Of a stretch of DNA of 64,000 bases, positions 33,358 to 54,861 are shown one piece after another. The position numbers and the translations under genes were made by a program. Each line of letters starts with the position of its first letter. Position 1 is the stretch's first letter. Under the pieces are notes generated by a model, which saw only the letters and a program-made list of their open reading frames with translations, made no database searches and was not told where the DNA came from. The stretch is from a phage: sequence record PZ386948.1. One strand, 5' to 3'.

Positions 33358-33819
33358 TCATTGAGTTTTAATTACTGCTTTAGAAGCCTTTCCTGGTAAA
33401 CGACGACTGTTAATAATTGCCATCCTACATTGAAGTGACGGGTCTTTGAACTTCGCATTAGGTTTACAAACTGTAAATCCAAGCCAAAGATTTCCATCTG
33501 TGATTTCTAAACGTCCAGGACGGTATTCAACCCCATCAATAAAATCCTCGTCAATGTCAGGACGCGGAGGCATACTCAGGAATTCATTAACTTCTAAAAC
33601 ATGGTCTTTTATTTTGTGGAATAATTCAAAAACATATGTCTCATCAATCTCCCGTTGAATTGCACGATCAAGAAGATGCTGAGAATATTTTAGATGAAAC
33701 GATGAGACCCCTGCTGCTTTTGATGCCTCACGAATCTCATTGTTAATTTGACGAAACTCCGACTCAAAGTGACGACGAAGCTTATTTCGACGGATAAAAA
33801 CTTCTGTGTTGATAGTCAT
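33358..33819 (-). CDS. regB: RegB site-specific endoribonuclease
   Basis: 153 aa; sequence and position match remembered T4 RegB. Confidence 0.75.
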   Translation of the reverse strand: MTINTEVFIRRNKLRRHFESEFRQINNEIREASKAAGVSSFHLKYSQHLLDRAIQREIDETYVFELFHKIKDHVLEVNEFLSMPPRPDIDEDFIDGVEYRPGRLEITDGNLWLGFTVCKPNAKFKDPSLQCRMAIINSRRLPGKASKAVIKTQ

Positions 33820-35005: not shown

Positions 35006-35386
35006 TCAATTAGAAAATAAATTTATCCAAGATTGTTCTTTAATTAAAAATGGCTCAGAATCATATGCCATTAAACTCTGTGTGATTAGTCCTTTAAAAG
35101 GCCCATCAATAAATTCCATGGTAAAATATGGAATTTTATTCATTAGCCGTGCATTAGGAGCCGTGCACAAAACTCTGCATCCTTTGAATACGCCTTTTTG
35201 TAATTTGTATTGCTTGGGATAAAATTCGCTCAAAATGTTATTTTTTGCCAAAATTTCAAAATGATTCACCAATTTATTTTTAATAGTTTTTGGCGAAAAA
35301 TAAAGATATTCGAAAAGCTGAGTGTCTGTCATCATTGCATTCCGATTACGAAAAACTGTGGACGAGTAATACCACCAATGCAACAT
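35006..35386 (-). CDS. hypothetical protein
   Basis: 126 aa ORF. Confidence 0.4.
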   Translation of the reverse strand: MLHWWYYSSTVFRNRNAMMTDTQLFEYLYFSPKTIKNKLVNHFEILAKNNILSEFYPKQYKLQKGVFKGCRVLCTAPNARLMNKIPYFTMEFIDGPFKGLITQSLMAYDSEPFLIKEQSWINLFSN

Positions 35387-35871
35387 TTAATATTACAGCA
35401 GCAGTGTACAGTGTCAATATGGACACTATAAATCTTATCCATATCAGGAGATTTGACAGGCTCATCAATTATATACAAAATTCGCGAAAGCGATAAACCT
35501 CTGAACTTGCTTCCTTTATTACCAATAAAACTGCGCACAGAATCAGTAAATAAACGAAAACGTATATCATCATTAGAATAACGCGAAAATTCCTTTTTAA
35601 TATTATCTGCGGAAATTTTAGCGTAAGCTGAAGTATTAGAAAGAACAATAACTGTTCCACCGTCATACAACCAATTAGCGGCAAAATTAGTTACTGCAGT
35701 TGATTTACCAGATTGACGCCCACCATCTAGTCGAAGTGTACAATACTGTTTAAGTAAGTCTTCAAATGGCGGGATATATTCGTTTTTACAAATTTCTTCT
35801 ACTCTAGCATCAGAATGGTGTGTAAAAGCATTCATCAGGGATAGATAAGGACCAGTTAAAAATGTTCTCAT
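35332..35871 (-). CDS. P-loop protein with C-terminal Cys cluster
   Basis: Walker A-like GGRQSGKST; C-terminal CCCNIKCC; start set at MRTFLTG. Confidence 0.45.
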   Translation of the reverse strand: MRTFLTGPYLSLMNAFTHHSDARVEEICKNEYIPPFEDLLKQYCTLRLDGGRQSGKSTAVTNFAANWLYDGGTVIVLSNTSAYAKISADNIKKEFSRYSNDDIRFRLFTDSVRSFIGNKGSKFRGLSLSRILYIIDEPVKSPDMDKIYSVHIDTVHCCCNIKCCIGGITRPQFFVIGMQ

Positions 35872-36016
35872 TTTGTTCTCTCTAGGTTTGGGCCATTCCA
35901 TGGCGCATGAATTGTCCATTTCTGTATTTACCCATTACCGCACTTGGGCTCGACCTTATTACAGGTTGGCGGGAATCCCTCACAGAATCATGAGGTCCAG
36001 GTTATTCCCATGTTAT

Positions 36017-36433
36017 TTAAATGTAAATATTTTTGCCGTAATACTTATACCAGTGTGGCTTCATTAAAATTTTTTCATCGAGTCGTTGTTGACTCAACTT
36101 AATAGCTGATTTGCATGGATTATAATCATTTTTCCATTCTACTGGAATATCGCTGATGTCAGGAACTTCAGTATCTTTTATACTGAACCCGCGTTTTAAG
36201 CATTCCGTTATAATGTCCGATTGACGCTTTCGCAAAAATTCTAACTTATCGTAAAAGAAAGTAACATGACCAGAACCTAAAATAAATTTAGAAGATATTT
36301 TAAAATCTTTAACGCGCTTACCGTTTGCCACATGCTTACGAACTATACCAAAAACACGCGGCAATTCACGGTATTCTGCGATTAAATGTTGATCAGCAAG
36401 TTCAGATACTAAAGTCAAATTAATACGAGTCAT
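36017..36433 (-). CDS. denV: endonuclease V (pyrimidine-dimer DNA glycosylase)
   Basis: 138 aa [28 protein letters not shown]... matches remembered T4 DenV. Confidence 0.9.
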
Positions 36434-36492
36434 TTTATCCCTCCAAGTAACTGTGAATATACTATCACAATTCTAGGAGAAAGTAAACAACT

Positions 36493-37023
<531 letters not shown>

Positions 37024-37479
37024 TTAAAAGAGGCTGTTCATTATTCGGTAAAGTGAAGGACCCATCACATATTGCCACTGAGTACGAGGAATAAGGGCAA
37101 AAGCATCCATCTCTGGAATCATAACACCATCTTTATTTTCAAAATAAGACTCGCAATGGCAATTTCTGAACATCTCATGCTCTACTGGAATCGTATAATA
37201 AAATAACTGTAAGTCTTTATTACTAGAATATTTAAATACACCTAGGTCTTCTAGAAGGTCTGGATTATAATTGCTAAAACCGGTCTCTTCTAAGCATTCT
37301 CTTTTTGCAGCTTCCAGTGCATTCAAATCAGAACTTTCTACGCGGCCCTTTGGAATATCCCAGCGATGTGCCATCATTCCAGGCTTACGAGAACCAGTAA
37401 CCCGACCCATAAATAAATCTTTATCTTCTGTCATAAAGATAATACCAGCTGATAGTGTTTTCATTTTAATTTCCTGCAT
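37024..37479 (-). CDS. nudE: Nudix hydrolase (NudE-like)
   Basis: Nudix box GRVESSDLNALEAAKRECLEETG; position after e as T4 e.1. Confidence 0.8.
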   Translation of the reverse strand: MQEIKMKTLSAGIIFMTEDKDLFMGRVTGSRKPGMMAHRWDIPKGRVESSDLNALEAAKRECLEETGFSNYNPDLLEDLGVFKYSSNKDLQLFYYTIPVEHEMFRNCHCESYFENKDGVMIPEMDAFALIPRTQWQYVMGPSLYRIMNSLF

Positions 37480-40189: not shown

Positions 40190-40453
40190 TTATTTCATAT
40201 TATTGAAATATTCTTCTGCGATTTCGTCGTTATCATGGTAAACTTTAGAAGACAGTTTAACATAACCTTCAGCAGTGAACATGTTAATCACAACCTTTAC
40301 AGTATACCACTGACCATCTTCATTACCCATTACTGCGTAAGTTTCAAACATCGGATGGTCAGGACCGATAACTTTAATATCATTCACTGTACGACCGAAA
40401 TCTTCTGAAACACATTTCATAAAGAAGTTGAACAGCTCACCGTAATTATCCAT
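40190..40453 (-). CDS. hypothetical protein
   Basis: Start set at MDNYGELF with GGAG RBS; 5' ORF extension is promoter repeat. Confidence 0.4.
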   Translation of the reverse strand: MDNYGELFNFFMKCVSEDFGRTVNDIKVIGPDHPMFETYAVMGNEDGQWYTVKVVINMFTAEGYVKLSSKVYHDNDEIAEEYFNNMK

Positions 40454-40496
40454 TTCATTCTCCAAGTTGTTTTCTGTATCAGTAGTTGATAGTTGT

Positions 40497-40526
40497 ATAG
40501 TACCATGGAAGGACAAGGATGTAAAC
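40497..40526 (-). promoter_or_regulatory. early-type promoter (GTTTACA-17-TGGTACTAT)
   Basis: Same motif family, upstream of ORF start 40453. Confidence 0.5.
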
Positions 40527-40659
40527 CGTTTTGTGAAAAAATTTTTAAAAAGTTTTGGGGAATTCTAGGGCAGGAAGGGGAAATCAAAGGATAGGATAAT
40601 ATATTATAAAGGGTAGAAACTAAATGATGTCTAGAGAGGCCTGGAAAGGCCTAGATACC

Positions 40660-40687
40660 AAAAAGCCCCAACCTTTCGGTCGGGGCT
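40660..40687 (-). terminator. intrinsic terminator, copy 1 of repeated hairpin
   Basis: aaaaagccccaacctttcggtcggggct; GC stem plus U-tract on minus strand; identical copy at 41205-41232. Confidence 0.6.
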
Positions 40688-40694
40688 AAGAATG

Positions 40695-41168
40695 TTATTT
40701 GATTTGTTTAGCAGACCAAATGCGATCTTTAATAATTTTTTGGATGTCTTCAACATACACAAGAGAGTGAGCATGTGGATTATCTTTGAAACTATAAGCA
40801 CGAGCTAGTTTTTGGCCTTCAGTTTTGATTACTAAAAGCTCTTTAAGGATAGCTTCATATTTGGAGATAATTCCTTTAACAATATTTTTTTCTTGTGCAG
40901 CTTTAGGATCTGCTTTAGGAGCAGGTTTACCCGAAGCCTTTGCAAAAGCAGCGCCAGTAGCAACTAAACTTTTCCAGGCCATACTAACTGCATTTCCCGT
41001 AAATCCTTCCGCTTTCATGTCGCGTGCGAACTGGAATCGCGATTCATCAGAAGCATCTTTATAAGAATATTTACCCGCTGCAATGGCTGCTTTTGCGACA
41101 GCTTGAATTTCGGTGCTAGATGCTTCATTTAACACCGCTTCATTTAAAAATTGAGTATATGATTTCAT
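40695..41168 (-). CDS. internal-protein-like ORF with capsid-targeting-like N-terminus
   Basis: 157 aa; N-terminus MKSYTQFLNEA resembles T-even internal-protein targeting sequence MKTYQEFIAEA; Ala/Lys-rich. Confidence 0.45.
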   Translation of the reverse strand: MKSYTQFLNEAVLNEASSTEIQAVAKAAIAAGKYSYKDASDESRFQFARDMKAEGFTGNAVSMAWKSLVATGAAFAKASGKPAPKADPKAAQEKNIVKGIISKYEAILKELLVIKTEGQKLARAYSFKDNPHAHSLVYVEDIQKIIKDRIWSAKQIK

Positions 41169-41204
41169 CTTATTTCCTGTTTTAATTCGTGGTTTTAATA
41201 TACT

Positions 41205-41232
41205 TATTTATACTAAAAAGCCCCAACCTTTC
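41205..41232 (-). terminator. intrinsic terminator, copy 2 of repeated hairpin
   Basis: Identical 28-nt sequence to 40660-40687. Confidence 0.6.
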
Positions 41233-41251
41233 GGTCGGGGCTAAGCCTTGC

Positions 41252-41550
41252 GGCAACCTTGTCGGGGTTCCACCTGCTAAGGCAAGTGTTTGTACGAAAC
41301 GCCGGGATTCGAACCCGGTTATTAAGCAGTTGACGCTACTCAATATTTTTAAAAGGCCATATCTCGACCATATCCGAACGTTCCGTCAAAAACGCTACTC
41401 GGCTTACGGCAAAGATATTTCCTCGAATCGATAATTCGGTGCGCCGTTTCTGCTGTGATGTAAGAGGGCATCAATAAACGCAAAGATTATTAACGCAATT
41501 CCTTACTCAGGGAACATCAGTCCGACGACTTACCGGTAGCGACCCGGTTT
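41252..41550 (-). ncRNA. candidate structured small RNA
   Basis: ~300 nt without ORF; minus-strand perfect T-arm-like hairpin CCGGGUUCGAAUCCCGG; intrinsic terminator at 41205-41232. Confidence 0.35.
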
Positions 41551-41551
41551 C

Positions 41552-41902
41552 TTAATATTCTTTTAAAGCATCAATCTGTTTACGGCGTTCACGCCATAAA
41601 TCAATTGCTTCATACGCGGATTCAACATTTCGAATTGGACGGCATTTATATAAAGATTTGTGATTTTGATATTGCGTAGATAACGGAATTTTATCTAAAA
41701 GGTCTTTACGTTCAAAGTATTCGTAACCATCTAAGCCAAATGAACGATTTTTGAGAAATTGCCAATGACCAAATTCGTTTTGAATATAAATATAATCCGC
41801 ATGTTGATAAAGTAAATTAATTTCACGAAATGAGATATGTTTTTCATATTCATTGAAGTAAAATGTTAAATCATGAACTACTAAATAAACATTACCTTTC
41901 AT
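41552..41902 (-). CDS. hypothetical protein
   Basis: 116 aa ORF adjacent to tRNA-Arg. Confidence 0.45.
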   Translation of the reverse strand: MKGNVYLVVHDLTFYFNEYEKHISFREINLLYQHADYIYIQNEFGHWQFLKNRSFGLDGYEYFERKDLLDKIPLSTQYQNHKSLYKCRPIRNVESAYEAIDLWRERRKQIDALKEY

Positions 41903-41920
41903 ATTTTCCTCACTTATAAT

Positions 41921-41996
41921 TGGTCGAGGCAGTAGGGATCGAACCTACGACCTAGGACTTAGAAGGTCCTTGCTCTTCCTTCTGAGCTATGCCCCG
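41921..41996 (-). tRNA. tRNA-Arg (anticodon UCU)
   Basis: Minus-strand cloverleaf read by eye: anticodon arm AGGAC-CUUCUAA-GUCCU, T-arm GUAGG-UUCGAUC-CCUAC, encoded CCA. Confidence 0.8.
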
Positions 41997-42000
41997 TAAT

Positions 42001-42087
42001 TGGGGTGACCGATGGGAGTCGAACCACCCGAGTCGCAATGACAATGGATTTACAGTCCACACCGCTACCTCTACGGGATAACTCCCC
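42001..42087 (-). other. tRNA-like element, non-canonical (possible degenerate tRNA or small stable RNA)
   Basis: Has GGUUCGA T-loop-like motif, anticodon-like arm with GUA in loop and 3' CCA, but acceptor and T stems do not pair canonically by eye. Confidence 0.3.
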
Positions 42088-42100
42088 TTAATTCTTAATT

Positions 42101-42175
42101 TGGTGGCCCTGGGTGGAATTGAACCACCATCTGGCGATTATGAGTCGCTTGCTTGAACCTTCCAGCTACAGGGCC
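42101..42175 (-). tRNA. tRNA with CAU anticodon (Ile2-type or Met)
   Basis: Acceptor GGCCCUG/CAGGGCC, anticodon loop CUCAUAA, T-loop UUCAAUU, CCA encoded. Confidence 0.8.
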
Positions 42176-42176
42176 T

Positions 42177-42252
42177 TGGTGCTGATTGACGGAATCGAAC
42201 CGCCGACCTTCTCATTACAAGTGAGTTGCTCTACCTACTGAGCTAAATCAGC
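42177..42252 (-). tRNA. tRNA-Thr (anticodon UGU)
   Basis: Acceptor GCUGAUU/AAUCAGC, anticodon loop CUUGUAA, T-arm GGCGGUUCGAUUCCGUC. Confidence 0.8.
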
Positions 42253-42257
42253 AAAAC

Positions 42258-42347
42258 TGGCGGAGGCGATAGGATTTGAACCTATGAGTCGCCGGAGCGA
42301 CTGCCGGTTTTCAAGACCGGTGCATTAAACCACTCTGCCACGCCTCC
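42258..42347 (-). tRNA. tRNA-Ser (anticodon UGA)
   Basis: 90 nt type-II tRNA; reverse complement matches remembered T4 tRNA-Ser (GGAGGCGUGGCAGAGUGG...). Confidence 0.9.
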
Positions 42348-42353
42348 AAATAT

Positions 42354-43004
42354 TTATATATTGTTAATTTGATTTAGAATTCTTTTTGCTTGAGTATGAC
42401 TTACGCCAATATGCTTAGCATATTTAGACAATTCGCCACGTTTAGAAAAATCATATAATTTAGAAATTTCTATTCTTCTTTTTCTTTCATCCGCAGAAAC
42501 TTTTGCTTCGTTTGCTTTTGCTATTTTACGTTTAGCTTCTTGAGAATGAGTTTTACCAGCAAAGCCATTCTTCATTAATCCATTTGAAGACCATCCTTTT
42601 AATTTTCCGTTAGAATGTGCCTTTTTAACACCCAATGAAATTAATTCGCGTTGCTGATCTGTCATAGGATAATTATTTATATGATCCCATCCACCTTCAC
42701 CTCCAAGTTTTAAATTATACACATCTGGTCTATTTAAAAACTCTTCTGTGACAATATTTTTCTCGGCTTCAAGCATAGATTCTTTATCGTCAAAATACTC
42801 TAATATTTCTTTAGAAAAATTTTCTATACCATATTTATCTTGGGCTCTTTTTAATAATTTACCAGAACCCATATATCCATCATCTAAATTTTCGGTAGAA
42901 TGCACACCAATATAAATTTTATTATTAATTTTATTTGTTATTTTATAAAGATAAAAATGCATATCAGTCCCTAATAAAGAACTGAGCGTCTCACGACGAG
43001 TCAT
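42354..43004 (-). CDS. GIY-YIG homing endonuclease (SegB-like)
   Basis: 216 aa; GIY-YIG core YLYKITNKINNKIYIGV; C-terminal HTH-like tail; embedded between tRNA-Ser and tRNA-Gly. Confidence 0.75.
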   Translation of the reverse strand: MTRRETLSSLLGTDMHFYLYKITNKINNKIYIGVHSTENLDDGYMGSGKLLKRAQDKYGIENFSKEILEYFDDKESMLEAEKNIVTEEFLNRPDVYNLKLGGEGGWDHINNYPMTDQQRELISLGVKKAHSNGKLKGWSSNGLMKNGFAGKTHSQEAKRKIAKANEAKVSADERKRRIEISKLYDFSKRGELSKYAKHIGVSHTQAKRILNQINNI

Positions 43005-43008
43005 AAAT

Positions 43009-43082
<74 letters not shown>

Positions 43083-43087
43083 AAATT

Positions 43088-43174
43088 TGGTGCGAGAAGT
43101 GGGACTCGAACCCACAAGGAAATCATTCCGCAGCATTTTAAGTGCTGTGCCTTTACCAATTTGACCATTCTCGC
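43088..43174 (-). tRNA. tRNA-Leu (anticodon UAA)
   Basis: 87 nt type-II tRNA; reverse complement matches remembered T4 tRNA-Leu (GCGAGAAUGGUCAAAUUGG...). Confidence 0.9.
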
Positions 43175-43180
43175 GCTATA

Positions 43181-43813
43181 TTATTTATTACGTGAAAAAG
43201 ACTGTTCTATCAATTCTGGACACTTTCGTTCTATCCATTTTCTAGCTTTTTGTGGGCTTATACCTATTATTTTAGCAGCTTTACTAACCCATCCAAATTT
43301 AGAATAATCGATTTTAACTAATTCTTCGTAAATTTCATCAGTTAAAATCTTTTCATTAATATTTACCAGTAAATGATATAATTTATTATCATTAGCAATT
43401 TTAATGAATCTTTTATAGTTTCCGCCTTTACTTAAACCTAATGAAGTAATTGCAGATGATATAGTAGCCGAATTTAATAGTGCGTTTAAAATTTCTTCAT
43501 CACTAACATTATAACGCTTTTTATTATTTTTAATATTTTTACCAGCAAAAGTATCAGTTTGCGAATGGCAGTTTGGACATAATAATCTTAAATTTGATTT
43601 AAGATGATTTTTGTTATTTCCATCAATATGGTCTAATTGCAGAACAATATGCTTATTTTGCCATTTTGAAATTTTACAAATTGCACACTCATATGGAAAA
43701 ATATTTTCTTTTATTATTTTGTCTTTCAGCTTTCCTGTACTAAAATTTGGATGTTTTCCTTCAAAAATTTCAGCTAATTTAGTATCCATAATATGATTCC
43801 CAATTATTAACAA
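43181..43813 (-). CDS. HNH homing endonuclease with zinc-finger and C-terminal HTH-like tail
   Basis: 210 aa; CAIC...HIDGNNKNH...NLRLLCPNCH; abuts tRNA-Leu. Confidence 0.7.
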   Translation of the reverse strand: MLIIGNHIMDTKLAEIFEGKHPNFSTGKLKDKIIKENIFPYECAICKISKWQNKHIVLQLDHIDGNNKNHLKSNLRLLCPNCHSQTDTFAGKNIKNNKKRYNVSDEEILNALLNSATISSAITSLGLSKGGNYKRFIKIANDNKLYHLLVNINEKILTDEIYEELVKIDYSKFGWVSKAAKIIGISPQKARKWIERKCPELIEQSFSRNK

Positions 43814-43888
43814 AGGCTCTCTAACAAGAACCCTTGATGATAGAGGGTATTAATCAGTGCGGTATGAGTTAATAATAACAAATAATTC

Positions 43889-44404
43889 TTAAAGCAAATT
43901 AAACATTTTAACGGTCGGCAAAACAATTTCTTTTTCTATATAAGAGTATTTAACACTCTCAACTACACGCAAAAAATCATAATCATAATACTCAGAAGCA
44001 TTACCTAAAATATTAATAAGTCCTTCAAGCACTTTATTACCATTCACAAAGAATAAGTCAAATACGCGTTCTTCGTCTTCTTCGGATTTATTACCAAGGT
44101 CAACTTCTATATCAAAGACCTTTTTAATGAATTCTGGATAAAGTTGTTCTGAGAACAGTCCTTCAACCAAGTATTCATAAATAAAAAGCGATTGCTCGCT
44201 GAACAAGCCATTACCACAATAACGTTCAGCTTTAGTACTAGAATGTCTACTTTTAAACTTCTTTAAAAGATATTGAAATTGTAAGATTTCATGCTCTTCT
44301 ACGCCAAACAGTGTTTTAGTTTTATAGTTGTCACCATCATTTTCCCAGGTAGTGACATCAATTACGTAACCCTGTGGAATTGTAGTACCTAAACAAATAT
44401 TCAT
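43889..44404 (-). CDS. hypothetical protein
   Basis: 171 aa ORF. Confidence 0.45.
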   Translation of the reverse strand: MNICLGTTIPQGYVIDVTTWENDGDNYKTKTLFGVEEHEILQFQYLLKKFKSRHSSTKAERYCGNGLFSEQSLFIYEYLVEGLFSEQLYPEFIKKVFDIEVDLGNKSEEDEERVFDLFFVNGNKVLEGLINILGNASEYYDYDFLRVVESVKYSYIEKEIVLPTVKMFNLL

Positions 44405-44694
44405 TTGCTCACCATATTAATGTAAGTATATTCAATACATTCAAGACCCAAAGGATTCTTGAAAATATCATATTCAAGAGGACCTTTTTCTGTTTCAATA
44501 AAGAAATCAAAATTTACTGTATTAAATTTACGGTCTTCCTTCACTAATTTAACCTGAGAAGATGAACGGTCAATGTAAACCTTTTCAACTTCAAAACATG
44601 TTAAAACGCCATAATCATCAATCAAGGCTTTAGCCGCGTCTTGATCATATTTATATCCATTTTCAATTGACGATACTTTAGCATAAAGAATCAT
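44401..44694 (-). CDS. hypothetical protein
   Basis: 97 aa ORF. Confidence 0.4.
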   Translation of the reverse strand: MILYAKVSSIENGYKYDQDAAKALIDDYGVLTCFEVEKVYIDRSSSQVKLVKEDRKFNTVNFDFFIETEKGPLEYDIFKNPLGLECIEYTYINMVSK

Positions 44695-44696
44695 TA

Positions 44697-45116
44697 TCAG
44701 CCTTCATCAACAATAGTATGAGTGTGGGCATTTACAATTTGCCACCAATCAAAGCGATTAGAACCACACATCGGTTTGTTTTCATTTTCTTTGATAATAT
44801 CACGAAGTTCATCTTCGGTAGCGGCTTTCGCGATTAAATCAGCATATCCACCGCGAGGATAATAATTATCACCTGCAAAAAGTAAAAAGTTCGGTTTAAT
44901 ATTATTGAACTCTTCAAGAGTAATAACTTTTCCTGTCGGTTGAACAATCTCTACATATTTATATCCTAATTTTTGAGCAGCATCTACTGCTTCAAGCAAA
45001 GTATCATGAGCCCATCCAATTTGACAACCTGGCTTTTCAGATGGATTAGCCTGATAATCCGCGTACACTTTATACATTCTATTCACCTTTAGAAATTTTA
45101 TCCATAACGATAGCAA
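44697..45116 (-). CDS. hypothetical protein
   Basis: 139 aa ORF; probable internal start. Confidence 0.4.
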   Translation of the reverse strand: MLSLWIKFLKVNRMYKVYADYQANPSEKPGCQIGWAHDTLLEAVDAAQKLGYKYVEIVQPTGKVITLEEFNNIKPNFLLFAGDNYYPRGGYADLIAKAATEDELRDIIKENENKPMCGSNRFDWWQIVNAHTHTIVDEG

Positions 45117-45264
45117 TTAAACCAATTAAAAATGCTACTACAAGTGAAAAAACATTTTCTGCTGTAGTTAATAATCCGCATATAAATCCAACAAACATTG
45201 AAAAACTAAAAGCAGAAGCAGAAATTGCAATAGCAACATTTCGAATTAATTCACAACGTTTCAT
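45079..45264 (-). CDS. small membrane protein
   Basis: Start set at MKRCELI; hydrophobic; preceded by promoter repeat. Confidence 0.4.
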   Translation of the reverse strand: MKRCELIRNVAIAISASAFSFSMFVGFICGLLTTAENVFSLVVAFLIGLIAIVMDKISKGE

Positions 45265-45292
45265 TTTATTCTCCTCAGTAGCTGATAGGGTA

Positions 45293-45322
45293 ATAGTATC
45301 ACTACTAAAACCCAATGTAAAC
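45293..45322 (-). promoter_or_regulatory. early-type promoter repeat for small membrane ORF 45079-45264
   Basis: Same repeat unit. Confidence 0.5.
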
Positions 45323-45325
45323 AAT

Positions 45326-45550
45326 TTATTCAACGCCAGCGGCTTTCAAAAGTTTCTTAAGATTGGCAACACCTTGAGCAGAAAATGTGACCTTGCCACC
45401 TTTTTCACTGATAGAACCAACCAATTTAGCAAGTTTATCATTAGGAATTTTTTTAAAATCAGCCAATGTTCCATCAAAGGTTTTTGAAACAAAAGGCAGT
45501 TCGTCTTCGCGTCTTTTAGCTTCTACAATAAATTCTTGATATGTTTTCAT
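45326..45550 (-). CDS. internal-protein-like (capsid-targeting N-terminus)
   Basis: Start MKTYQEFIVEA... equals T-even IP targeting sequence consensus; preceded by promoter repeat. Confidence 0.65.
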   Translation of the reverse strand: MKTYQEFIVEAKRREDELPFVSKTFDGTLADFKKIPNDKLAKLVGSISEKGGKVTFSAQGVANLKKLLKAAGVE

Positions 45551-45586
45551 TTTAGTTTCCATTTGAGTGTTTGTTTTGATAGGGTA

Positions 45587-45616
45587 ATAGTATCACTACT
45601 AAAACCCAATGTAAAC
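45587..45616 (-). promoter_or_regulatory. early-type promoter repeat (GTTTACA-17-TACTAT) for IP-like gene 45326-45550
   Basis: Minus-strand GTTTAC/TTTACA then 17 nt then TGxTACTAT; same ~55-bp unit repeated at 45293, 45953, 46283. Confidence 0.55.
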
Positions 45617-45634
45617 AACTTTGTGAAAAATTTA

Positions 45635-45922
45635 TTACAAAAGATTTTTAGCAATAATCTTGAGATGTGCCGCAGAAATGTGTTTAGCTTTAAACAACGC
45701 AGTTTCTTCAGCAGGAGAGATAACGATTGTAGCACCATCCTTTTTAGCAGACCACCCATCGCCTAGGTAAACAGTACCTTTGATTTCTTCGCCATCAACC
45801 AGACTAATCATTGGTTTACCTTCTCGTCCTTTATTTGCTTTAATAACTTCAGAAGTAAGAGTAGCTTCGGTAATAGTAGAAACCGGGGTAGTTGTAGAAG
45901 TAAATTCTTTGAAAGTTTTCAT
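45635..45922 (-). CDS. internal-protein-like (capsid-targeting N-terminus)
   Basis: 95 aa; MKTFKEFTSTTTPVSTITEA...; preceded by promoter repeat. Confidence 0.6.
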   Translation of the reverse strand: MKTFKEFTSTTTPVSTITEATLTSEVIKANKGREGKPMISLVDGEEIKGTVYLGDGWSAKKDGATIVISPAEETALFKAKHISAAHLKIIAKNLL

Positions 45923-45952
45923 TTTATTTTCCTAATTAATTTTGATAGGGTA

Positions 45953-45982
45953 ATAGTATCACAACTAAAACCCTATGTAAAC
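45953..45982 (-). promoter_or_regulatory. early-type promoter repeat for IP-like gene 45635-45922
   Basis: Same repeat unit. Confidence 0.55.
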
Positions 45983-45994
45983 AACTTTGTGAAA

Positions 45995-46252
45995 TTATTT
46001 TAAATCTTCTAATCGTTTCTTCATCTTAGAACCGTTCTTAGCGATTTCGCCTGCATCAGAGCATAATGCTAAAAGCGCTTTAACTTTAGTTTGGTCTCCT
46101 TTAAAAGATGAAGGATCAACAGCAGCAGCAAGTTCTTTAATACGAGAGAAAAGACGCTCAGCTTCAGCTAAAGCCATTCCAAGCTTTACTTCCATACCGC
46201 GGGAAGATTCAGTAATAGTAGTTTTTGTAGCAAACTCTTTGAAAGTTTTCAT
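45995..46252 (-). CDS. internal-protein-like (capsid-targeting N-terminus)
   Basis: 85 aa; MKTFKEFATKTTITES...; preceded by promoter repeat. Confidence 0.6.
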   Translation of the reverse strand: MKTFKEFATKTTITESSRGMEVKLGMALAEAERLFSRIKELAAAVDPSSFKGDQTKVKALLALCSDAGEIAKNGSKMKKRLEDLK

Positions 46253-46282
46253 TTTATTTTCCTAATTAATTTTGATGAGGTA

Positions 46283-46312
46283 ATAGTATCACTACCTCAT
46301 CAGTATGTAAAC
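46283..46312 (-). promoter_or_regulatory. early-type promoter repeat for IP-like gene 45995-46252
   Basis: Same repeat unit. Confidence 0.55.
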
Positions 46313-46324
46313 AACTTTGTGAAA

Positions 46325-47009
<685 letters not shown>

Positions 47010-47010
<1 letters not shown>

Positions 47011-47735
47011 TATAGTACCTTTAGTGTATTTTTAATTTTAGAAAAAAGTTCTTCAAGAGAACCATCGTTTGTAATTACTAAATCGCCATCACGAATTGGC
47101 AATCCAGCTTCTGTAATATGTGTATCATTGGATTTTTGACCAGGACGAACTACATGAATTACTGTAGCACCCATCGCCCTAGCCGCATCCATTTCATGAT
47201 CTTGACGGGTATCAGGAACGATATAATAATCATAACCTGAGTTAAATTTATCAAGATAATCTAAAGCAAATAATTTTACCCAGTACATGCGGTCGAAGTT
47301 ATTAACAATCAAATCCGTACCTAGGGCTTGCATCAGACGACGGACTGACCATTGATCTTCAATATTATTTATAACGTCAATAATCTTGTTAAATGCTACG
47401 GAATTAACTGATTCTTGTCCTTCGTCATCAAAAACAAACACACCCTTAATTGGGCTTTTACCGTTAAGATAGCAAAATGCTTGTTCCATAATCGTGATTA
47501 CTTCTGATTTAGTCAGATTTAAATTAGTCTCACGATCATAGTCAATTCCTTCAAACTCTTTACGAGTTAAGCAAGGATAGTCAGTGTTTGCTGCAAATAC
47601 TCCCCATGCATAAGCCAATGCATCCTTAATAGGACCAGCAAGTTGGTATTTAACTGCAGAATAATTGCTCATGATAAAATCAGCAGTAGTATCTTTTCCA
47701 CTACGCTTTACACCGCTTAAAAAGATTAGTTTCAT
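47010..47735 (-). CDS. 1: deoxynucleoside monophosphate kinase gp1
   Basis: Start set at MKLIFLSGVKRSGKDT (P-loop) giving 241 aa as T4 gp1. Confidence 0.85.
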
Positions 47736-47784
47736 GTGTTTCTCCTCAAATTTAATTAAGATTATAACACACAAAACTGAAGCA

Positions 47785-48315
47785 TTAAACTTCTGCTATA
47801 ATTTTACCATCTTTTTCTACTTGAAAATACGTATAAGGAATCGTAGCTGTACATACTAAAGCCGGGTCTGAATCTTCTGTGTAGCTAAATTCTACTTCAG
47901 ATAGGTCAGAAACCCAAGGCTTATAAAAATTTATTGACATCACGATTTCAGTTTTGCTATTATCTAAGATGTAAAGCGTAATGTACTCAGGACCTGTTTT
48001 TTGGGCAGTATTTTCACCTGTAAGATAGTTGCTAGTTCCTAGCATCCATTCATACATTCCTATCCACGACTTAAGTTCTTCATCAACTATAAATCTCACA
48101 ATGAGTGGATCATACTCAAATGTAACACCTGGACGTTGTGCTCTACCCAGTCCAAACGGCCCAGTCACGGTATCAGTAACAGGTATTCTAATTCCTGGAA
48201 TAGGAACTGACTGAGCATTTAAAGTAAAAGCAGATGTAGTATTACTATGTGGTATTGATACTACAAAGTTAGTTGTATTTGCTTGGTTAAAAATTTGTTG
48301 CAGAGCTTGCGACAT
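47785..48315 (-). CDS. 3: tail completion / sheath stabiliser gp3
   Basis: Start set at internal Met MSQALQQIF giving 176 aa; synteny 1-3-2-4. Confidence 0.7.
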   Translation of the reverse strand: MSQALQQIFNQANTTNFVVSIPHSNTTSAFTLNAQSVPIPGIRIPVTDTVTGPFGLGRAQRPGVTFEYDPLIVRFIVDEELKSWIGMYEWMLGTSNYLTGENTAQKTGPEYITLYILDNSKTEIVMSINFYKPWVSDLSEVEFSYTEDSDPALVCTATIPYTYFQVEKDGKIIAEV

Positions 48316-48421
48316 ATATTCCTCATAATGCTTTATAACTGTTGGTGGTATAATGGGTCTAAGTCCCTTCCATTCAATTCCATTTAGAACAAACAACAGA
48401 AAAGAATGGAAGATAATAGAA

Positions 48422-49246
48422 TTAGATATTTGACCAGACTTTGTTTGCAGAGAAACGTTTTCCTTTTGAAACGAACTGCTGAAGTGGCATCAACACAACG
48501 TTCGCCCAGTCTTTCGGGGCGATTTCAACAAGGCTACCCATAATATTACCAGGTATATATGCCTTAATCATTTGGTCTGCACCCCTAAATCCTTTCACTT
48601 GACTCCAATCAATTTTTAATTTCGTTTTATTAGTAATAGTAGGTGTATTTGCATATTGCTTTAAAAGCTCTTCTAGGAATTGCTGACGAGCTTTAGGTGG
48701 AATATAGTGCAAGTTTAATCCGTACATTAAATTATGCTTACCTAAACCAAGGTAAATTATCAAAGGAAATTTATCCCAGTAAGGAAGAGTTTCCTTGTGT
48801 TTAGCATCATAAGCAAAAGCATATATTCGTCCCGGCTGCGGGCGAACAACTTTATGTCCTTTTACTTGCTTAATAGTTTCAGCAAACCATTTTCTGGTTT
48901 TATTATTAATTGCTGCACCTTCATTACGAATTTTATCACGCAATGTTTGTCTGAATGAATTTATCATAAGCAGTTGTCTTTCTTGCTTATTGAGCTTATT
49001 CATTGGTTTTGATTCAAGCTTTTGAATCTTTTCAGCCGTTTTAATTCCTGAAGCATATTTTGACATTGCCGAAGTAAACGTAGAGTATTTGATTCCTCTT
49101 TCTTCAGCAAATTGCTTTCCTGTCATTCCTTTTGCTTTGGCCTTTTTATATTCAAGACCTATCTGAATCCATTTCTTTTCGTTTAATGATTGCTTAACCT
49201 TTGGAACTTGGGGAGTGCTTTCATTAATTATTTGAAAAATAGCCAT
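48422..49246 (-). CDS. 2: DNA end-protector protein gp2
   Basis: 274 aa; synteny and length as T4 gp2. Confidence 0.8.
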
Positions 49247-49698
49247 TATGCCCCCTTAAAGCCAAGAGCTCGTAATCCATCTTCTGTTAAAATTCTAAAT
49301 TTTATTCCACGCTTTTCAGCTAAAGATTGTGCTGCTTTCCATTTGTCGGTGTTAACAGACCAGGTATAAATTTCATTCATAAATCTTTTCTTCGCTGCGG
49401 TTGTTAGATGCGCCGGTTTAACTGGTGGTTGTGTTTCTTTTTTAGGTTTTATTTCAATAAAAAATTCTTGTCCAGAAGAATCTTTCATCCAAATATCCAT
49501 GAAGTATCTACGTTTTTTCCCTTCTGCATTACAAAAATAAGGAATTACTGCTGTTTCACTACCCCATGCAATAATTTCTGGATTTTTATCTAACCATTCA
49601 AAAAAGAATTTTTCCCAATTTGATCTATACGTAATTTTTTTAGGGTCACCTCTATACTTTGATATATTTTTAGGAACCCATTTTCCAGAATATGCCAT
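49246..49698 (-). CDS. 4: head completion protein gp4
   Basis: 150 aa; synteny and length; late promoter upstream. Confidence 0.8.
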
Positions 49699-49709
49699 TG
49701 GATTCTCCT

Positions 49710-49717
49710 TATAAATA
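49710..49717 (+). promoter_or_regulatory. late promoter (TATAAATA) for gene 53
   Basis: Exact TATAAATA about 29 nt upstream of gene 53 ATG. Confidence 0.6.
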
Positions 49718-49724
49718 GATAATA

Positions 49725-49732
49725 TATTTATA
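49725..49732 (-). promoter_or_regulatory. late promoter (TATAAATA) for gene 4 operon
   Basis: Minus-strand TATAAATA about 27 nt upstream of gene 4 ATG; divergent with gene 53 promoter. Confidence 0.55.
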
Positions 49733-49745
49733 AACAGGAGGGCCC

Positions 49746-50336
49746 ATGCTCTTTACATTTTTTGATCCGATTGAATATGCGGCCAAAACGGTGAATAAAA
49801 ACGCGCCGACTATTCCTATGACAGATATTTTTAGAAACTATAAAGACTATTTTAAACGCGCTCTTGCGGGATACCGCTTACGTACTTATTATATCAAAGG
49901 TTCACCACGCCCGGAAGAATTAGCAAATACTATATATGGAAATCCACAGTTGTATTGGGTTTTATTGATGTGTAATGATAATTATGACCCGTATTATGGA
50001 TGGATTACTTCACAAGAAGCAGCTTATCAAGCATCTATACAAAAATACAAAAATGTAGGTGGAGACCAAATAGTATATCATGTGAATGAGAACGGTGAAA
50101 AATTTTATAATTTAATATCATACGATGATAATCCATATGTTTGGTATGATAAAGGCGATAAAGCTAGAAAATATCCTCAATATGAAGGAGCACTTGCTGC
50201 GGTCGATACGTATGAAGCTGCTGTTCTTGAAAATGAAAAACTTCGTCAAATAAAAATAATAGCAAAATCAGACATCAATTCATTTATGAACGACCTTATA
50301 CGTATAATGGAGAAATCTTATGGAAATGATAAGTAA
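49746..50336 (+). CDS. 53: baseplate wedge protein gp53
   Basis: 196 aa; first plus-strand gene after divergent late promoters; T4 synteny. Confidence 0.8.
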   Translation: MLFTFFDPIEYAAKTVNKNAPTIPMTDIFRNYKDYFKRALAGYRLRTYYIKGSPRPEELANTIYGNPQLYWVLLMCNDNYDPYYGWITSQEAAYQASIQKYKNVGGDQIVYHVNENGEKFYNLISYDDNPYVWYDKGDKARKYPQYEGALAAVDTYEAAVLENEKLRQIKIIAKSDINSFMNDLIRIMEKSYGNDK

Positions 50337-52047
50337 TAACCTTAATTGGTTTGTTGGTGTTGTTGAAGATAGAATGGACCCATTAAAATTAGGTCGTGTT
50401 CGTGTTCGTGTGGTTGGTCTGCATCCACCTCAAAGAGCACAAGGCGATGTAATGGGTATTCCAACTGAAAAATTACCATGGATGTCAGTTATTCAACCTA
50501 TAACTTCTGCAGCAATGTCTGGAATTGGAGGTTCTGTTACTGGTCCGGTAGAAGGAACTAGAGTCTATGGTCATTTTTTAGACAAATGGAAAACTAACGG
50601 AATTGTCCTTGGCACGTATGGTGGAATAGTTCGCGAAAAACCTAATAGACTTGAAGGATTTTCTGATCCGACTGGACAGTATCCTAGACGTCTAGGAAAT
50701 GATACTAACGTATTAAACCAAGGCGGAGAAGTAGGATATGATTCGTCTTCTAATATTATCCAAGATAGCAATCTAGACACTGCGATAAATCCTGATGATA
50801 GACCACTATCAGAGATTCCAACTGATGATAATCCAAATATGTCAATGGCTGAAATGCTTCGCCGCGATGAAGGATTAAGACTAAAAGTTTATTGGGATAC
50901 TGAAGGATATCCGACAATTGGTATTGGTCATCTTATCATGAAGCAGCCAGTTCGTGATATGACTCAAATTAATAAAGTTTTATCAAAACAGGTTGGTCGT
51001 GAAATTACCGGAAATCCAGGTTCTATTACAATGGAAGAAGCGGTAACTTTATTTGAACGTGATTTGGCTGATATGCAAAGGGATATTAAATCACATTCTA
51101 AAGTAGGACCAGTCTGGCAAGCTGTCAACCGTTCTCGTCAAATGGCATTAGAAAATATGGCGTTTCAGATGGGTGTTGGCGGTGTAGCTAAATTTAACAC
51201 AATGTTAACTGCTATGTTAGCCGGAGATTGGGAAAAAGCATATAAAGCCGGTCGTGATTCATTGTGGTATCAACAAACAAAAGGCCGTGCATCCCGTGTT
51301 ACCATGATTATTCTTACGGGGAATTTGGAATCATATGGTGTTGAAGTGAAAACCCCAGCTAGGTCTCTATCAGCAATGGCTGCTACTGTAGCTAAATCTT
51401 CTGACCCGGCTGACCCTCCTATTCCAAATGACTCGAGAATTTTATTCAAAGAACCAGTTTCTTCATATAAAGGTGAATATCCTTATGTGCATACAATGGA
51501 AACTGAAAGCGGACATATTCAGGAATTTGATGATACTCCTGGGCAAGAACGATACAGATTAGTTCATCCGACTGGAACTTATGAAGAAGTATCACCGTCA
51601 GGAAGAAGAACAAGAAAAACTGTCGATAATTTGTATGATATAACCAACGCTGATGGTAATTTTTTGATAGCCGGTGATAAAAAGACTAACGTCGGTGGAT
51701 CAGAAATTTATTACAACATGGATAATCGTCTTCACCAAATAGATGGAAGCAATACAATATTTGTACGTGGCGATGAAACTAAGACGGTTGAAGGTAATGG
51801 AACTATCCTAGTTAAAGGTAATGTTACTATTGTAGTTGAAGGTAATGCTGACATCACAGTTAAAGGAGATGCTACCACTTTAGTTGAAGGTAATCAAACT
51901 AATACAGTAAATGGAAATCTTTCTTGGAAAGTTGCTGGGACAGTTGATTGGGACGTTGGTGGTGATTGGACAGAAAAAATGGCATCTATGAGTTCTATTT
52001 CATCCGGTCAATACACAATTGATGGATCGAGGATTGACATTGGCTAA
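50320..52047 (+). CDS. 5: baseplate hub / tail lysozyme gp5
   Basis: 575 aa; internal lysozyme domain DEGLRLKVYWDTEGYPTIGIGHL; C-terminal VEGN/VKGN beta-helix repeats. Confidence 0.92.
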   Translation: MEMISNNLNWFVGVVEDRMDPLKLGRVRVRVVGLHPPQRAQGDVMGIPTEKLPWMSVIQPITSAAMSGIGGSVTGPVEGTRVYGHFLDKWKTNGIVLGTYGGIVREKPNRLEGFSDPTGQYPRRLGNDTNVLNQGGEVGYDSSSNIIQDSNLDTAINPDDRPLSEIPTDDNPNMSMAEMLRRDEGLRLKVYWDTEGYPTIGIGHLIMKQPVRDMTQINKVLSKQVGREITGNPGSITMEEAVTLFERDLADMQRDIKSHSKVGPVWQAVNRSRQMALENMAFQMGVGGVAKFNTMLTAMLAGDWEKAYKAGRDSLWYQQTKGRASRVTMIILTGNLESYGVEVKTPARSLSAMAATVAKSSDPADPPIPNDSRILFKEPVSSYKGEYPYVHTMETESGHIQEFDDTPGQERYRLVHPTGTYEEVSPSGRRTRKTVDNLYDITNADGNFLIAGDKKTNVGGSEIYYNMDNRLHQIDGSNTIFVRGDETKTVEGNGTILVKGNVTIVVEGNADITVKGDATTLVEGNQTNTVNGNLSWKVAGTVDWDVGGDWTEKMASMSSISSGQYTIDGSRIDIG

Positions 52048-52576
52048 TATACTTCCAATGAGCGCTGATTTAGGAGAATCCATGGAAGGTTCTTCTATCG
52101 ACGTCACCTTTACCGCTCAATTAGAAACAGGTGAAACGTTAGTATCTATAAATATAACTAGTTACGAAGAAACTCCTGGGGTTTTAGTAGAAGAAAATCG
52201 CTTATATGGAACATATGAATCTGTGTTTGGATTTGGAAATGACGCGTTGAAATATCGTTTAGGCGATGAATTTAAAACTGCTGCTTCATGGGAAGAACTT
52301 CCTACTGATTCTGATACTCAGTTGTATTTGTGGAAAGCTCCTCAAAATCTCCAGAAGACATTCACTTACGAAGTAACATTAATATATGACTACCAAGAAC
52401 AAAGTGAATCTGGAGGTTCTGGCAGTAATTCTAGGTCATCTTCTGATACTACTGAACCGACGGATCCTCCTGCTCCAGTAAGAAAAACTCTCGTTAAAAA
52501 TTATACTAAAACTATAGTTGGAAATTGGAGTCGTTGGGCTAATAAATTAAGAAGCTATGTGTATGAGAGGTCATAG
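52019..52576 (+). CDS. hypothetical protein (5.1 position)
   Basis: 185 aa ORF between 5 and 5.4; start uncertain. Confidence 0.5.
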
Positions 52577-52870
52577 ATGTCAGGATTAAGTTATGATAAA
52601 TGTGTTACTGCTGGTCATGAAGCATGGCCTCCAACAGTTGTGAATGCTACACAAAGTAAAGTATTCACTGGAGGAATTGCTGTTCTCGTAGCAGGTGATC
52701 CAATTACAGAACATACAGAAATTAAAAAGCCATATGAAACACATGGCGGAGTGACACAACCCAGAACTTCTAAGGTATATGTCACTGGAAAGAAAGCTGT
52801 TCAAATGGCTGATCCAATATCATGCGGTGATACTGTGGCTCAGGCATCATCTAAAGTATTCATTAAATAG
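52577..52870 (+). CDS. 5.4: PAAR-repeat spike tip protein gp5.4
   Basis: 97 aa; position and length as T4 gp5.4. Confidence 0.75.
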
Positions 52871-52878
52871 GATTTAAA

Positions 52879-54861
52879 ATGGCAAATACCCCTGTAAATT
52901 ATCAATTAACAAGAACAGCAAATGCTATTCCCGAGATATTCGTCGGGGGTACGTTTGCTGAAATAAAACAAAATCTCATTGAATGGCTTAATGGCCAAAA
53001 TGAATTTTTGGATTATGATTTTGAAGGCTCAAGATTAAACGTTCTGTGTGACCTTTTAGCTTATAATACATTGTACATTCAACAGTTTGGTAATGCTGCT
53101 GTGTATGAAAGCTTTATGCGTACTGCTAACTTACGAAGTTCAGTTGTTCAAGCTGCACAAGATAACGGATATTTACCTACTTCAAAATCCGCTGCGCAGA
53201 CCGAAATTATGTTAACATGCACCGACGCATTGAATAGGAATTACATTACTATTCCTCGCGGAACTCGCTTTTTAGCATATGCAAAAGATACTTCTGTTAA
53301 TCCATATAACTTCGTTTCTACCGAAGACGTTATTGCTATTCGTGATAAAAATAACCAATATTTTCCGCGTTTAAAATTGGCCCAGGGACGTATAGTAAGA
53401 ACTGAAATCATTTATGATAAATTAACACCTATTATCATTTATGATAAAAATATTGATAGAAACCAGGTTAAATTATACGTTGATGGAGCAGAATGGATTA
53501 ACTGGACAAGAAAGTCAATGGTTCATGCTGGTTCTACATCGACAATTTACTACATGCGTGAAACTATTGATGGAAATACTGAATTCTATTTTGGTGAAGG
53601 TGAAATTTCTGTTAATGCTTCTGAAGGAGCTTTGACCGCTAATTATATCGGAGGTCTTAAACCTACTCAGAACTCTACGATTGTTATTGAGTACATCAGT
53701 ACTAATGGTGCTGACGCGAACGGAGCAGTCGGATTTTCATACGCAGATACATTAACAAATATAACTGTCATCAATATTAATGAAAATCCAAACGATGACC
53801 CAGATTTTGTTGGGGCAGATGGCGGCGGTGATCCAGAAGATATTGAGCGTATCCGCGAATTGGGTACTATTAAACGCGAAACCCAGCAACGCTGCGTAAC
53901 TGCGACTGACTATGATACATTCGTTTCAGAGAGATTTGGTTCTATTATTCAAGCAGTTCAGACTTTCACTGATTCTACTAAACCTGGTTATGCATTTATT
54001 GCTGCTAAACCTAAATCAGGTCTGTATTTAACTACCGTACAGCGTGAAGATATTAAAAATTATCTCAAAGACTATAATTTAGCTCCTATTACGCCATCAA
54101 TTATTTCTCCTAATTATCTTTTTATTAAGACTAATTTAAAAGTCACATATGCTTTAAATAAACTGCAAGAATCCGAGCAGTGGCTTGAAGGTCAAATAAT
54201 TGATAAAATTGATCGCTATTATACCGAAGATGTAGAAATTTTTAACTCGTCTTTCGCTAAATCTAAGATGTTGACATATGTAGATGATGCAGATCATTCT
54301 GTCATTGGTTCATCAGCGACTATTCAAATGGTTCGTGAAGTACAAAACTTCTATAAAACGCCTGAAGCGGGTATTAAATATAATAATCAAATAAAAGATC
54401 GTTCTATGGAATCTAATACGTTTTCATTTAATTCTGGACGAAAGGTTGTAAATCCTGATACTGGTTTAGAAGAAGATGTATTATATGATGTTCGTATAGT
54501 ATCAACAGACCGAGATTCTAAAGGAATTGGTAAAGTTATTATTGGTCCATTTGCTTCTGGCGATGTTACAGAAAATGAAAACATTCAGCCGTATACAGGC
54601 AATGATTTTAATAAATTAGCAAATTCTGATGGACGTGACAAATATTATGTTATCGGTGAAATAAATTATCCAGCTGACATGATTTATTGGAATATCGCTA
54701 AAATTAATTTAACATCTGAAAAATTTGAAGTTCAGACTATTGAATTATATTCTGACCCAACCGATGATGTTATCTTTACTCGCGATGGTTCACTGATTGT
54801 ATTTGAAAATGATTTACGTCCGCAATACTTAACTATCGATTTGGAGCCTATATCACAATGA
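52879..54861 (+). CDS. 6: baseplate wedge protein gp6
   Basis: 660 aa; T4 synteny and length. Confidence 0.88.
   Translation: MANTPVNYQLTRTANAIPEIFVGGTFAEIKQNLIEWLNGQNEFLDYDFEGSRLNVLCDLLAYNTLYIQQFGNAAVYESFMRTANLRSSVVQAAQDNGYLPTSKSAAQTEIMLTCTDALNRNYITIPRGTRFLAYAKDTSVNPYNFVSTEDVIAIRDKNNQYFPRLKLAQGRIVRTEIIYDKLTPIIIYDKNIDRNQVKLYVDGAEWINWTRKSMVHAGSTSTIYYMRETIDGNTEFYFGEGEISVNASEGALTANYIGGLKPTQNSTIVIEYISTNGADANGAVGFSYADTLTNITVININENPNDDPDFVGADGGGDPEDIERIRELGTIKRETQQRCVTATDYDTFVSERFGSIIQAVQTFTDSTKPGYAFIAAKPKSGLYLTTVQREDIKNYLKDYNLAPITPSIISPNYLFIKTNLKVTYALNKLQESEQWLEGQIIDKIDRYYTEDVEIFNSSFAKSKMLTYVDDADHSVIGSSATIQMVREVQNFYKTPEAGIKYNNQIKDRSMESNTFSFNSGRKVVNPDTGLEEDVLYDVRIVSTDRDSKGIGKVIIGPFASGDVTENENIQPYTGNDFNKLANSDGRDKYYVIGEINYPADMIYWNIAKINLTSEKFEVQTIELYSDPTDDVIFTRDGSLIVFENDLRPQYLTIDLEPISQ

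Follow-up and report, generated by a model that had tools for sequence, protein, structure and literature searches.

The 64-kb stretch of phage DNA analysed here (the window) has its lysozyme gene e and its denV gene side by side. T-even phages have two internal-protein (IP) loci, and with a probability of about 0.85 we read the joint between e and denV as the empty allele of the second one, holding a single promoter/stem-loop cassette. The adjacency is a fact of gene content, not a statistical signal. The empty slot is real, ordinary and already known: the locus is documented as hyperplastic, this allele of it is frequent, and the genome is published. Polymorphism of the IP loci and their promoter/stem-loop borders were described in 1994 (Repoila) and 2010 (Arbiol), and the layout is common to hundreds of sequenced phages, adding no new biology.

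The e–denV junction

The locus and its flanks comprise the following features, in order of transcription.

37024-37479, minus: nudE, NUDIX (Pfam), the gene adjoining e
36493-36987, minus: gene e (T4 lysozyme/endolysin), 164 aa; Pfam Phage_lysozyme PF00959, E 1.4e-13
36434-36492, minus: e–denV spacer, exactly 59 nt, the entire 'empty' IP slot
36017-36433, minus: denV, 138 aa, endonuclease V (pyrimidine-dimer glycosylase); Pfam Pyr_excise PF03013, E 1.4e-13
35872-36016, minus: denV-to-vs.8 spacer, with a conserved block of about 135 nt (35872-36010) within it
35332-35871, minus: vs.8 homologue, phrog_1488, 97% amino acid identity to T4 vs.8; right flank of the locus

All genes lie on the minus strand, so transcription runs nudE, e, spacer, denV, vs.8. 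The spacer holds no open reading frame (ORF) of 30 aa or more, judged by both the ORF listing and the raw sequence, and the e–denV joint is repeated base for base in independent genome records. In T4 (NC_000866, all minus), by comparison, denV (64939-65355) is separated from e (66503-66997) by ipII (65416-65718) and ipIII (65834-66415). A preliminary description of the window had placed the two genes about 60 nt apart and had assigned ipII and ipIII to this interval in T4; the measured gap bears out the first point, and the T4 reference the second.

The spacer consists of one early-promoter/stem-loop cassette and the denV ribosome-binding site, reading TAA-AGTT-GTTTAC-TTTCTCCTAGAATTG-TGA-TAGTAT-ATTCACAGTTACTT-GGAGGG-ATAAA-ATG in coding sense.

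36459-36488, minus: T4-type early promoter motif; GTTTAC 36488-36483, 15 nt, TGA 36467-36465, TAGTAT 36464-36459

The string GTTTAC-N15-TGATAGTAT (36488-36459) has the early-promoter layout, and the spacer fits the A/T-rich UP, -35, TGn and -10 arrangement of T4 early promoters (PMC2988021). By prediction, the cassette gives denV an early promoter of its own, with transcription starting near 36452. With one mismatch allowed, the window has 11 matches to GTTTAC-N15-TGATAnTAT where 0.07 would be expected, always on the minus (early-gene) strand; among them are the e–denV site and one at each edge of the three ipI-locus IP genes. Yersinia phage fPS-2 has a homologous cassette, which its annotation labels 'predicted early promoter'. 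Detection takes a T4-specific motif search: the spacer promoter, at 8/12 against TTGACA/TATAAT, was missed by a generic sigma-70 scan of 35900-37100. No terminator was found after e in a scan of the same interval, and Rfam (E <= 10) and ARAGORN gave only chance-level matches on the spacer.

On the far side of denV, the block of about 135 nt is almost base for base the same in T4, T2, RB3, ime09, VIPECOOM02 and the relative L014, whether denV or Ip4 lies upstream, and is the fixed right-hand border of the variable region. T4 annotates the block as an N-terminal extension of vs.8 (219 aa), a frame that is broken in the window (33-aa ORF, 35882-35983). A structured RNA was considered for the block and rejected (z = +0.46; Rfam (E <= 10) and ARAGORN at chance level).

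Occupancy among relatives and origin of the empty slot

Contiguity across the joint was assessed with a 259-nt junction probe, short enough that the search could not span a 1-kb insert. The probe matched 540 phage records and was contiguous in 245 of them, a lower bound that puts e–denV adjacency in at least 245 records. A longer query returned 421 records at 80% coverage or more; this figure was not used as an adjacency count, because pieces up to 1.6 kb apart were joined and it would take in T4-like layouts. Homologues of IpIII and IpII (tblastn, T4 queries) appear in 261 and 198 records, respectively, many of them from Klebsiella phages. Set against the 245 joint records, these counts show that the T4 layout is not the norm; with so many of the IpII/IpIII records contributed by Klebsiella phages, the IP-free joint is at least as frequent as the T4 layout among sequenced relatives.

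The closest relatives share the joint exactly. Shigella phage CM8 (MK962750 / NC_054939; a Tequatrovirus from chicken meat) and ESh29 match the window at 100% identity over 2.2 kb around e–denV, about 20 further isolates reach at least 99.5%, and Pinarejo, JK08, HP3 and other Tequatroviruses show 99.7-100% with the same e - 59 nt - denV - vs.8 arrangement. The annotated order in CM8 (vs.8-like, denV, lysozyme, nudix) is that of the window, and the two are 99.9% identical across window positions 40198-53224, save for a 974-bp tandem copy at the CM8 ipI locus.

Across annotated regions and IMG/VR loci, the e-to-vs.8 interval shows at least eight occupancy states.

T4, VIPECOOM02: e - ipIII - ipII - denV
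Window, CM8, L028: e - denV
L014: e - denV - Ip4
T2, RB3, fPS-2: e - Ip4, with denV absent altogether and Ip4 in its place
ime09: e - ORF127c-like IP - denV - Ip4
Mosigviruses MM02, AV110: e - IP - denV - two or three IPs
IME08: e - ipII - denV - IP
ECO07P3: truncated denV and an ipIII fragment

Relatives thus carry from none to about four capsid-targeting genes in this interval, on either side of denV; the window is empty on both sides.

Early-promoter stem-loops resembling the PeSL elements of phages RB49 and phi1 occur at two T-even IP loci, according to Repoila et al. 1994 as relayed by Arbiol et al. 2010 (PMC2839356). The latter count more than 30 known IP variants and suggest that IP shuffling may be due to such elements, which would also restrict it to the two loci; terminator/attenuator activity and mini-circle formation were shown experimentally for RB49/phi1 only (PMC2839356). 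The window cassette shares the PeSL order of stop codon, A/T-rich stretch, -35, stem-loop lying between the promoter boxes or overlapping them, -10, Shine-Dalgarno and start codon, with a predicted stable stem-loop that is associated with the promoter boxes and sits after the stop codon, ahead of the next Shine-Dalgarno/ATG. Copies of it, like those of PeSLs, mark the edges of variable, non-essential genes, where the elements are proposed to mediate modular shuffling. The two differ in sequence: the window cassette has a T4 early-promoter sequence with an A/T-rich stem, whereas the RB49 PeSL is of a sigma-70-consensus/polyG-polyC type. Arbiol et al. regard the RB49 and T-even elements as analogues, not homologues (PMC2839356).

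Cassette copies recur at the IP loci. Besides bracketing every IP gene at the window's ipI locus, they stand on both sides of ipIII-ipII in VIPECOOM02, downstream of ipII in AV110 and MM02, and after e in T4, RB3 and fPS-2. Escherichia phage vB_VIPECOOM02 (OQ721910; VIPECOOM02) is among the closest known comparisons. Its e and denV proteins are 100% and 97% identical to those of the window, and the cassette upstream of its denV is nearly identical to the window spacer, yet its layout is e - R - ipIII - ipII - R - denV (R, the cassette repeat) where the window has e - R - denV. The cassette of about 45 nt stands there as two direct repeats, one on each side of ipIII-ipII, which agree at 39 of 48 positions and lie 1059 bp apart. 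Both flanks align to the window, and the 43-nt overlap of the two alignments (36446-36488) falls exactly on the repeat. Because near-identical cassettes flank the VIPECOOM02 module, one repeat-by-repeat exchange would interconvert both layouts: homologous exchange between the repeats would remove or install the IP module of about 1.06 kb and leave the window's joint. We infer from these alignments that the window layout arose by such an exchange between flanking repeats.

T4 itself resembles the window in its flanking genes. Its e is 97% identical to the window protein, nudE and vs.8 likewise 95-97%, the same promoter/stem-loop cassette stands directly after e, and the window spacer matches the T4 e–ipIII intergenic region almost base for base up to the denV leader. 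T4 differs in having ipIII and ipII between this cassette and denV, in its divergent denV allele, and in an ipII–denV cassette of other sequence and the same design (CUCCUGUAG...CUACAGGAG). A simple deletion from T4 was therefore rejected: the denV allele (78% amino acid identity) and the ipII–denV cassette are too different. denV is mosaic in this respect, the window allele being 97% identical to VIPECOOM02 and 78% to T4 while its neighbours e, nudE and vs.8 are 95-97% identical to T4.

Which way the exchange ran is a matter of weighing. Loss, in which a VIPECOOM02-like ancestor dropped the 1.06-kb IP module by recombination between the flanking repeats, is a serious candidate that we would put a little below even odds. 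The window joint falls inside the VIPECOOM02 repeats, and the flanks are nearly identical to that phage. Three of five T4 populations evolved in the laboratory acquired spontaneous ipIII deletions (PMC9391042), and Arbiol et al. described deletions and mini-circles in RB49/phi1 via promoter stem-loops of this kind. Against these stands the symmetry of the event: the reverse exchange yields the same joint, and no scar tells the two apart.

Gain elsewhere would make e - R - denV the older state, with IP cassettes, each carrying its own leader and capsid-targeting sequence, inserted at R in T4-, T2- and RB3-type phages. In IP-bearing phages the copy next to e resembles a decayed denV leader (RB3 CTTGAAGAGATAAATTA and T4 CTTGAATAGACAATTA versus CTTGGAGGGATAAAATG in the window), followed by the shared IP leader TAATTAAAATATTTAAAGGAAACA-ATG; the likeness of the 3' arm to a Shine-Dalgarno sequence may, however, simply follow from pairing with a 5' arm that contains CUCC. 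Direct adjacency is also seen in L014 and in a different lineage (L028, denV 78% identical), and AV110 has an ipII-R-denV' fragment downstream of its own denV, so cassettes do travel with their flanks. Most of the non-Tequatrovirus relatives sampled, on the other hand, have an IP gene between e and denV, and on balance we regard this direction as possible but somewhat doubtful.

The AV110 fragment deserves description in its own right. This Mosigvirus (L010, about 2500-2655; coding-sense extract 2248-2400) carries ipII, a Tequatrovirus-type cassette and the first 100 nt or so of a second denV, which is broken by a stop codon (ATGACTTATATTAATTTGACTTTAGTATCTAAA) and lies downstream of the phage's own denV and several IP genes. 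The ipII-cassette-denV' segment is the footprint of a cassette that moved along with its flank.

The ipI locus and predicted anti-restriction content

The preliminary description had also stated that no IP gene lies between denV and e and that a three-gene array occupies the ipI locus. Both statements hold. A six-frame motif scan of the window found capsid-targeting sequences (MKT[YF][KQ]EF...) only at 45326-46252 and none in the denV–e interval; the array comprises exactly three such ORFs, all matching PHROG internal head/virion families (E 1e-48 to 2e-25 across the locus).

46283-46312, minus: early-promoter cassette copy
45995-46252, minus: Ip5-like internal protein, 85 aa, starting MKTFKEF, with an ITE/S cleavage-type motif; phrog_3499, E 1e-48; CM8 note 'Ip5'
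45953-45982, minus: early-promoter cassette copy
45635-45922, minus: ipI, 95 aa, 100% identical to T4 IpI; phrog_4363
45587-45616, minus: early-promoter cassette copy
45326-45550, minus: Ip8-like internal protein, 74 aa counted from MKTYQEFIVE/A; phrog_8765, E 2e-25; CM8 note 'Ip8'
45293-45322, minus: early-promoter cassette copy

The four cassette copies bracket the three genes in the order 57B - Pe - Ip5 - Pe - IpI - Pe - Ip8 - Pe - trna.4 (45293-46312, minus; Pe, early promoter). The genes begin MKTFKEFATKTTITE/S, MKTFKEFTSTTTPVSTITE/A and MKTYQEFIVE/A, each with a capsid-targeting sequence followed by an (I/L)-x-E motif, which we take, from established gp21 sites, to be the prohead-protease cleavage motif. 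Repeats accompany the array: copies of an early-promoter repeat of about 45 nt lie on both sides of each gene, and a repeat of about 123 nt runs from the promoter through the leader into the capsid-targeting sequence. Among other phage records, T4_ev240 alone is colinear over the three genes, and the Ip5/IpI/Ip8 combination is therefore uncommon. A literature search on Ip4, Ip5 and Ip8 returned only inositol-phosphate papers.

With two more IP genes here than in T4, one may ask whether the functions of ipII and ipIII were relocated, either encoded elsewhere or represented by divergent equivalents in the Ip5-like and Ip8-like proteins. We consider this very unlikely. Searching the window with T4 IpII and IpIII (tblastn, E <= 1) returned only capsid-targeting matches of about 10-15 residues (E 0.009-0.46), and tblastn of the remaining 103 kb or so of the near-identical CM8 again gave capsid-targeting matches only. 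The Ip5-like and Ip8-like proteins belong to PHROG families 3499 and 8765, as against 7857 for IpII and 5341 for IpIII, and Silas et al. found a strict one-inhibitor-one-GmrSD relation, with no new interactions for ten other ip genes. A 54-aa ORF by the CM8 primase gene, outside the window, does have a capsid-targeting-like start (MKTYKEFIKE). On family assignment, the genes at the ipI locus are IpI and members of two unrelated IP families, not displaced ipII and ipIII. The preliminary interpretation is supported as a whole. Its further claim that the IP repertoire has been 'reorganised' holds relative to T4 only, with two qualifications: T4 is not the norm, given at least 245 adjacency records, and nothing has moved.

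An empty allele remains the preferred reading, and an assembly collapse across repeated promoter cassettes in a phage that really has ipII and ipIII is a negligible prospect: repeats of the collapse-prone kind do flank the locus, and the 974-bp tandem repeat by which the CM8 record departs from the window at the ipI locus shows that repeat-related assembly differences occur here, but the identical contiguous joint stands in 245 records, sequenced independently by many laboratories and from many hosts, it keeps an intact promoter, Shine-Dalgarno and ATG for denV, and ipII/ipIII sequence is found nowhere in the CM8 genome.

Two features of CM8 are worth recording. The tandem copy (L003, 71366-73313, versus window 45564-46537) presents truncated 57B' - Ip5 - IpI twice, in both the GenBank and RefSeq versions; the choice lies between a genuine amplification of this segment of anti-restriction genes and a difference in assembly over the promoter repeats. 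The 54-aa ORF (L088, 17090-17254, minus) lies outside both IP loci and has a near-perfect capsid-targeting sequence; it may encode a packaged peptide that has gone unrecognised, or the match may be a relic or due to chance.

GmrSD is a Type IV nuclease that attacks glucosyl-HMC DNA, and internal proteins are injected anti-restriction factors (PMC12373910). Ip1, Ip2 and Ip3 each block a distinct GmrSD, those of strains CT596, ECOR21 and ECOR17, respectively, without cross-protection; T2 and T6 are without Ip2 (Silas et al. 2025, PMC12373910). IPIII decides T4 growth on Escherichia coli ECOR17 and is easily lost in the laboratory (PMC9391042). Judged by the genes, the virion is predicted to contain IpI together with one Ip5-like and one Ip8-like protein and to lack Ip2 and Ip3. 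With IpI present it should resist the GmrSD of CT596, and with Ip2 and Ip3 absent it should be restricted by ECOR21-type and ECOR17-type enzymes. We would therefore expect protection of the CT596 type and none against the ECOR21 and ECOR17 types, alongside two further IPs. Since IPs disable GmrSD subtypes, IP content is a direct, readable predictor of part of T-even host range, which matters for choosing therapeutic or biocontrol phages. Outside the window, CM8 has an annotated beta-glucosyl-HMC-alpha-glucosyltransferase (L088, 21763-22605), so its DNA sugar pattern may differ from that of T4; this would affect which GmrSD enzymes attack.

A predicted hairpin over the denV ribosome-binding site

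The cassette is predicted to fold into a stable RNA hairpin that encloses the denV Shine-Dalgarno sequence.

36438-36482, minus: predicted RNA hairpin; 5' arm between -35 and -10, -10 in the loop, 3' arm holding the denV Shine-Dalgarno
36470-36482, minus: 5' arm of the hairpin
36439-36444, minus: denV Shine-Dalgarno GGAGGG, fully paired in the predicted hairpin (P = 1.00)

Its folding energy is -24.1 kcal/mol (z -4.27), and none of 200 shuffles is as stable. Among the 23 GGAG-led leaders in the window that of denV is the most stable, although pairing of the Shine-Dalgarno at P >= 0.95 is also seen in 35% of these leaders. When folded one by one, 25 of 25 distinct denV leaders of T4 relatives have the Shine-Dalgarno paired (P 0.73-1.0, mostly 1.0), and they do so with at least six stem sequences, among them CUCCUAG/CUUGGAG, CUCCUGUAG/CUACAGGAG, CCUCCAAG/CUUGGAGG, UCUCCGUUUG/CAAACGGAGA and GUCCUCC/GGAGGAC. 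RNAalifold on a MAFFT alignment of 16 denV leaders returned an empty consensus, loop indels putting the stems out of register; the covariation argument consequently rests on per-sequence folds, which are weaker evidence.

Position gives the hairpin its potential meaning. The -10 lies in the loop and the predicted start, near 36452, is 3' of the 5' arm, so the promoter's own transcript would lack that arm. In read-through transcripts from e, the predicted effect of the hairpin is to hide the denV ribosome-binding site or to cause attenuation; transcripts starting inside the hairpin, being without the 5' arm, would be translatable, by analogy with T4 e, soc and gene 49. In T4 e, soc, gene 49 and I-TevI, a hairpin sequesters the ribosome-binding site on long transcripts, and an internal promoter yields a shorter, translatable mRNA. 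Such gating was reportedly described for these genes by McPheeters in 1986, Macdonald in 1984, Barth in 1988 and Gott in 1988. The denV leader resembles the e/soc type in having its predicted promoter inside the hairpin, and the window's own e leader likewise has a fully paired Shine-Dalgarno. It differs in timing: the known gated genes are late genes with a late (or middle) internal promoter, whereas denV would be an early gene with an early promoter, gated against read-through.

We propose, tentatively and with less than even confidence, that the denV leader is a conserved translational gate across T4 relatives. Its stem would be kept by compensatory changes in at least six variants, denV would be translated only from its own early transcripts and stay silent on abundant e/IP read-through, and the same element would serve as the recombination joint for IP cassettes. 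The folds are suggestive of a regulatory role only; if the proposal is true, the denV gate would add a new case to the known e/soc/49 kind of control. Within the literature searched, hairpin gating is apparently undescribed for denV.

T4 denV mRNA has a documented GGAG site that is resistant to RegB, a resistance set by the 7 nt after GGAG (PMC1702504). After GGAG (36434-36444), the window has GGAGGGAUAAA where T4 has GGAGAACACUA, and the window also departs from the RegB/S1 consensus GGAGRAYARAA.

Very stable hairpins with fully paired Shine-Dalgarno sequences are predicted in two other early-gene leaders of the window: that of a regB-region ORF starting at 33819 (minus; hairpin -23.1 kcal/mol) and that of an ORF starting at 24271 (minus; -19.4 kcal/mol). 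These predicted folds suggest that the promoter/stem-loop design recurs in the region.
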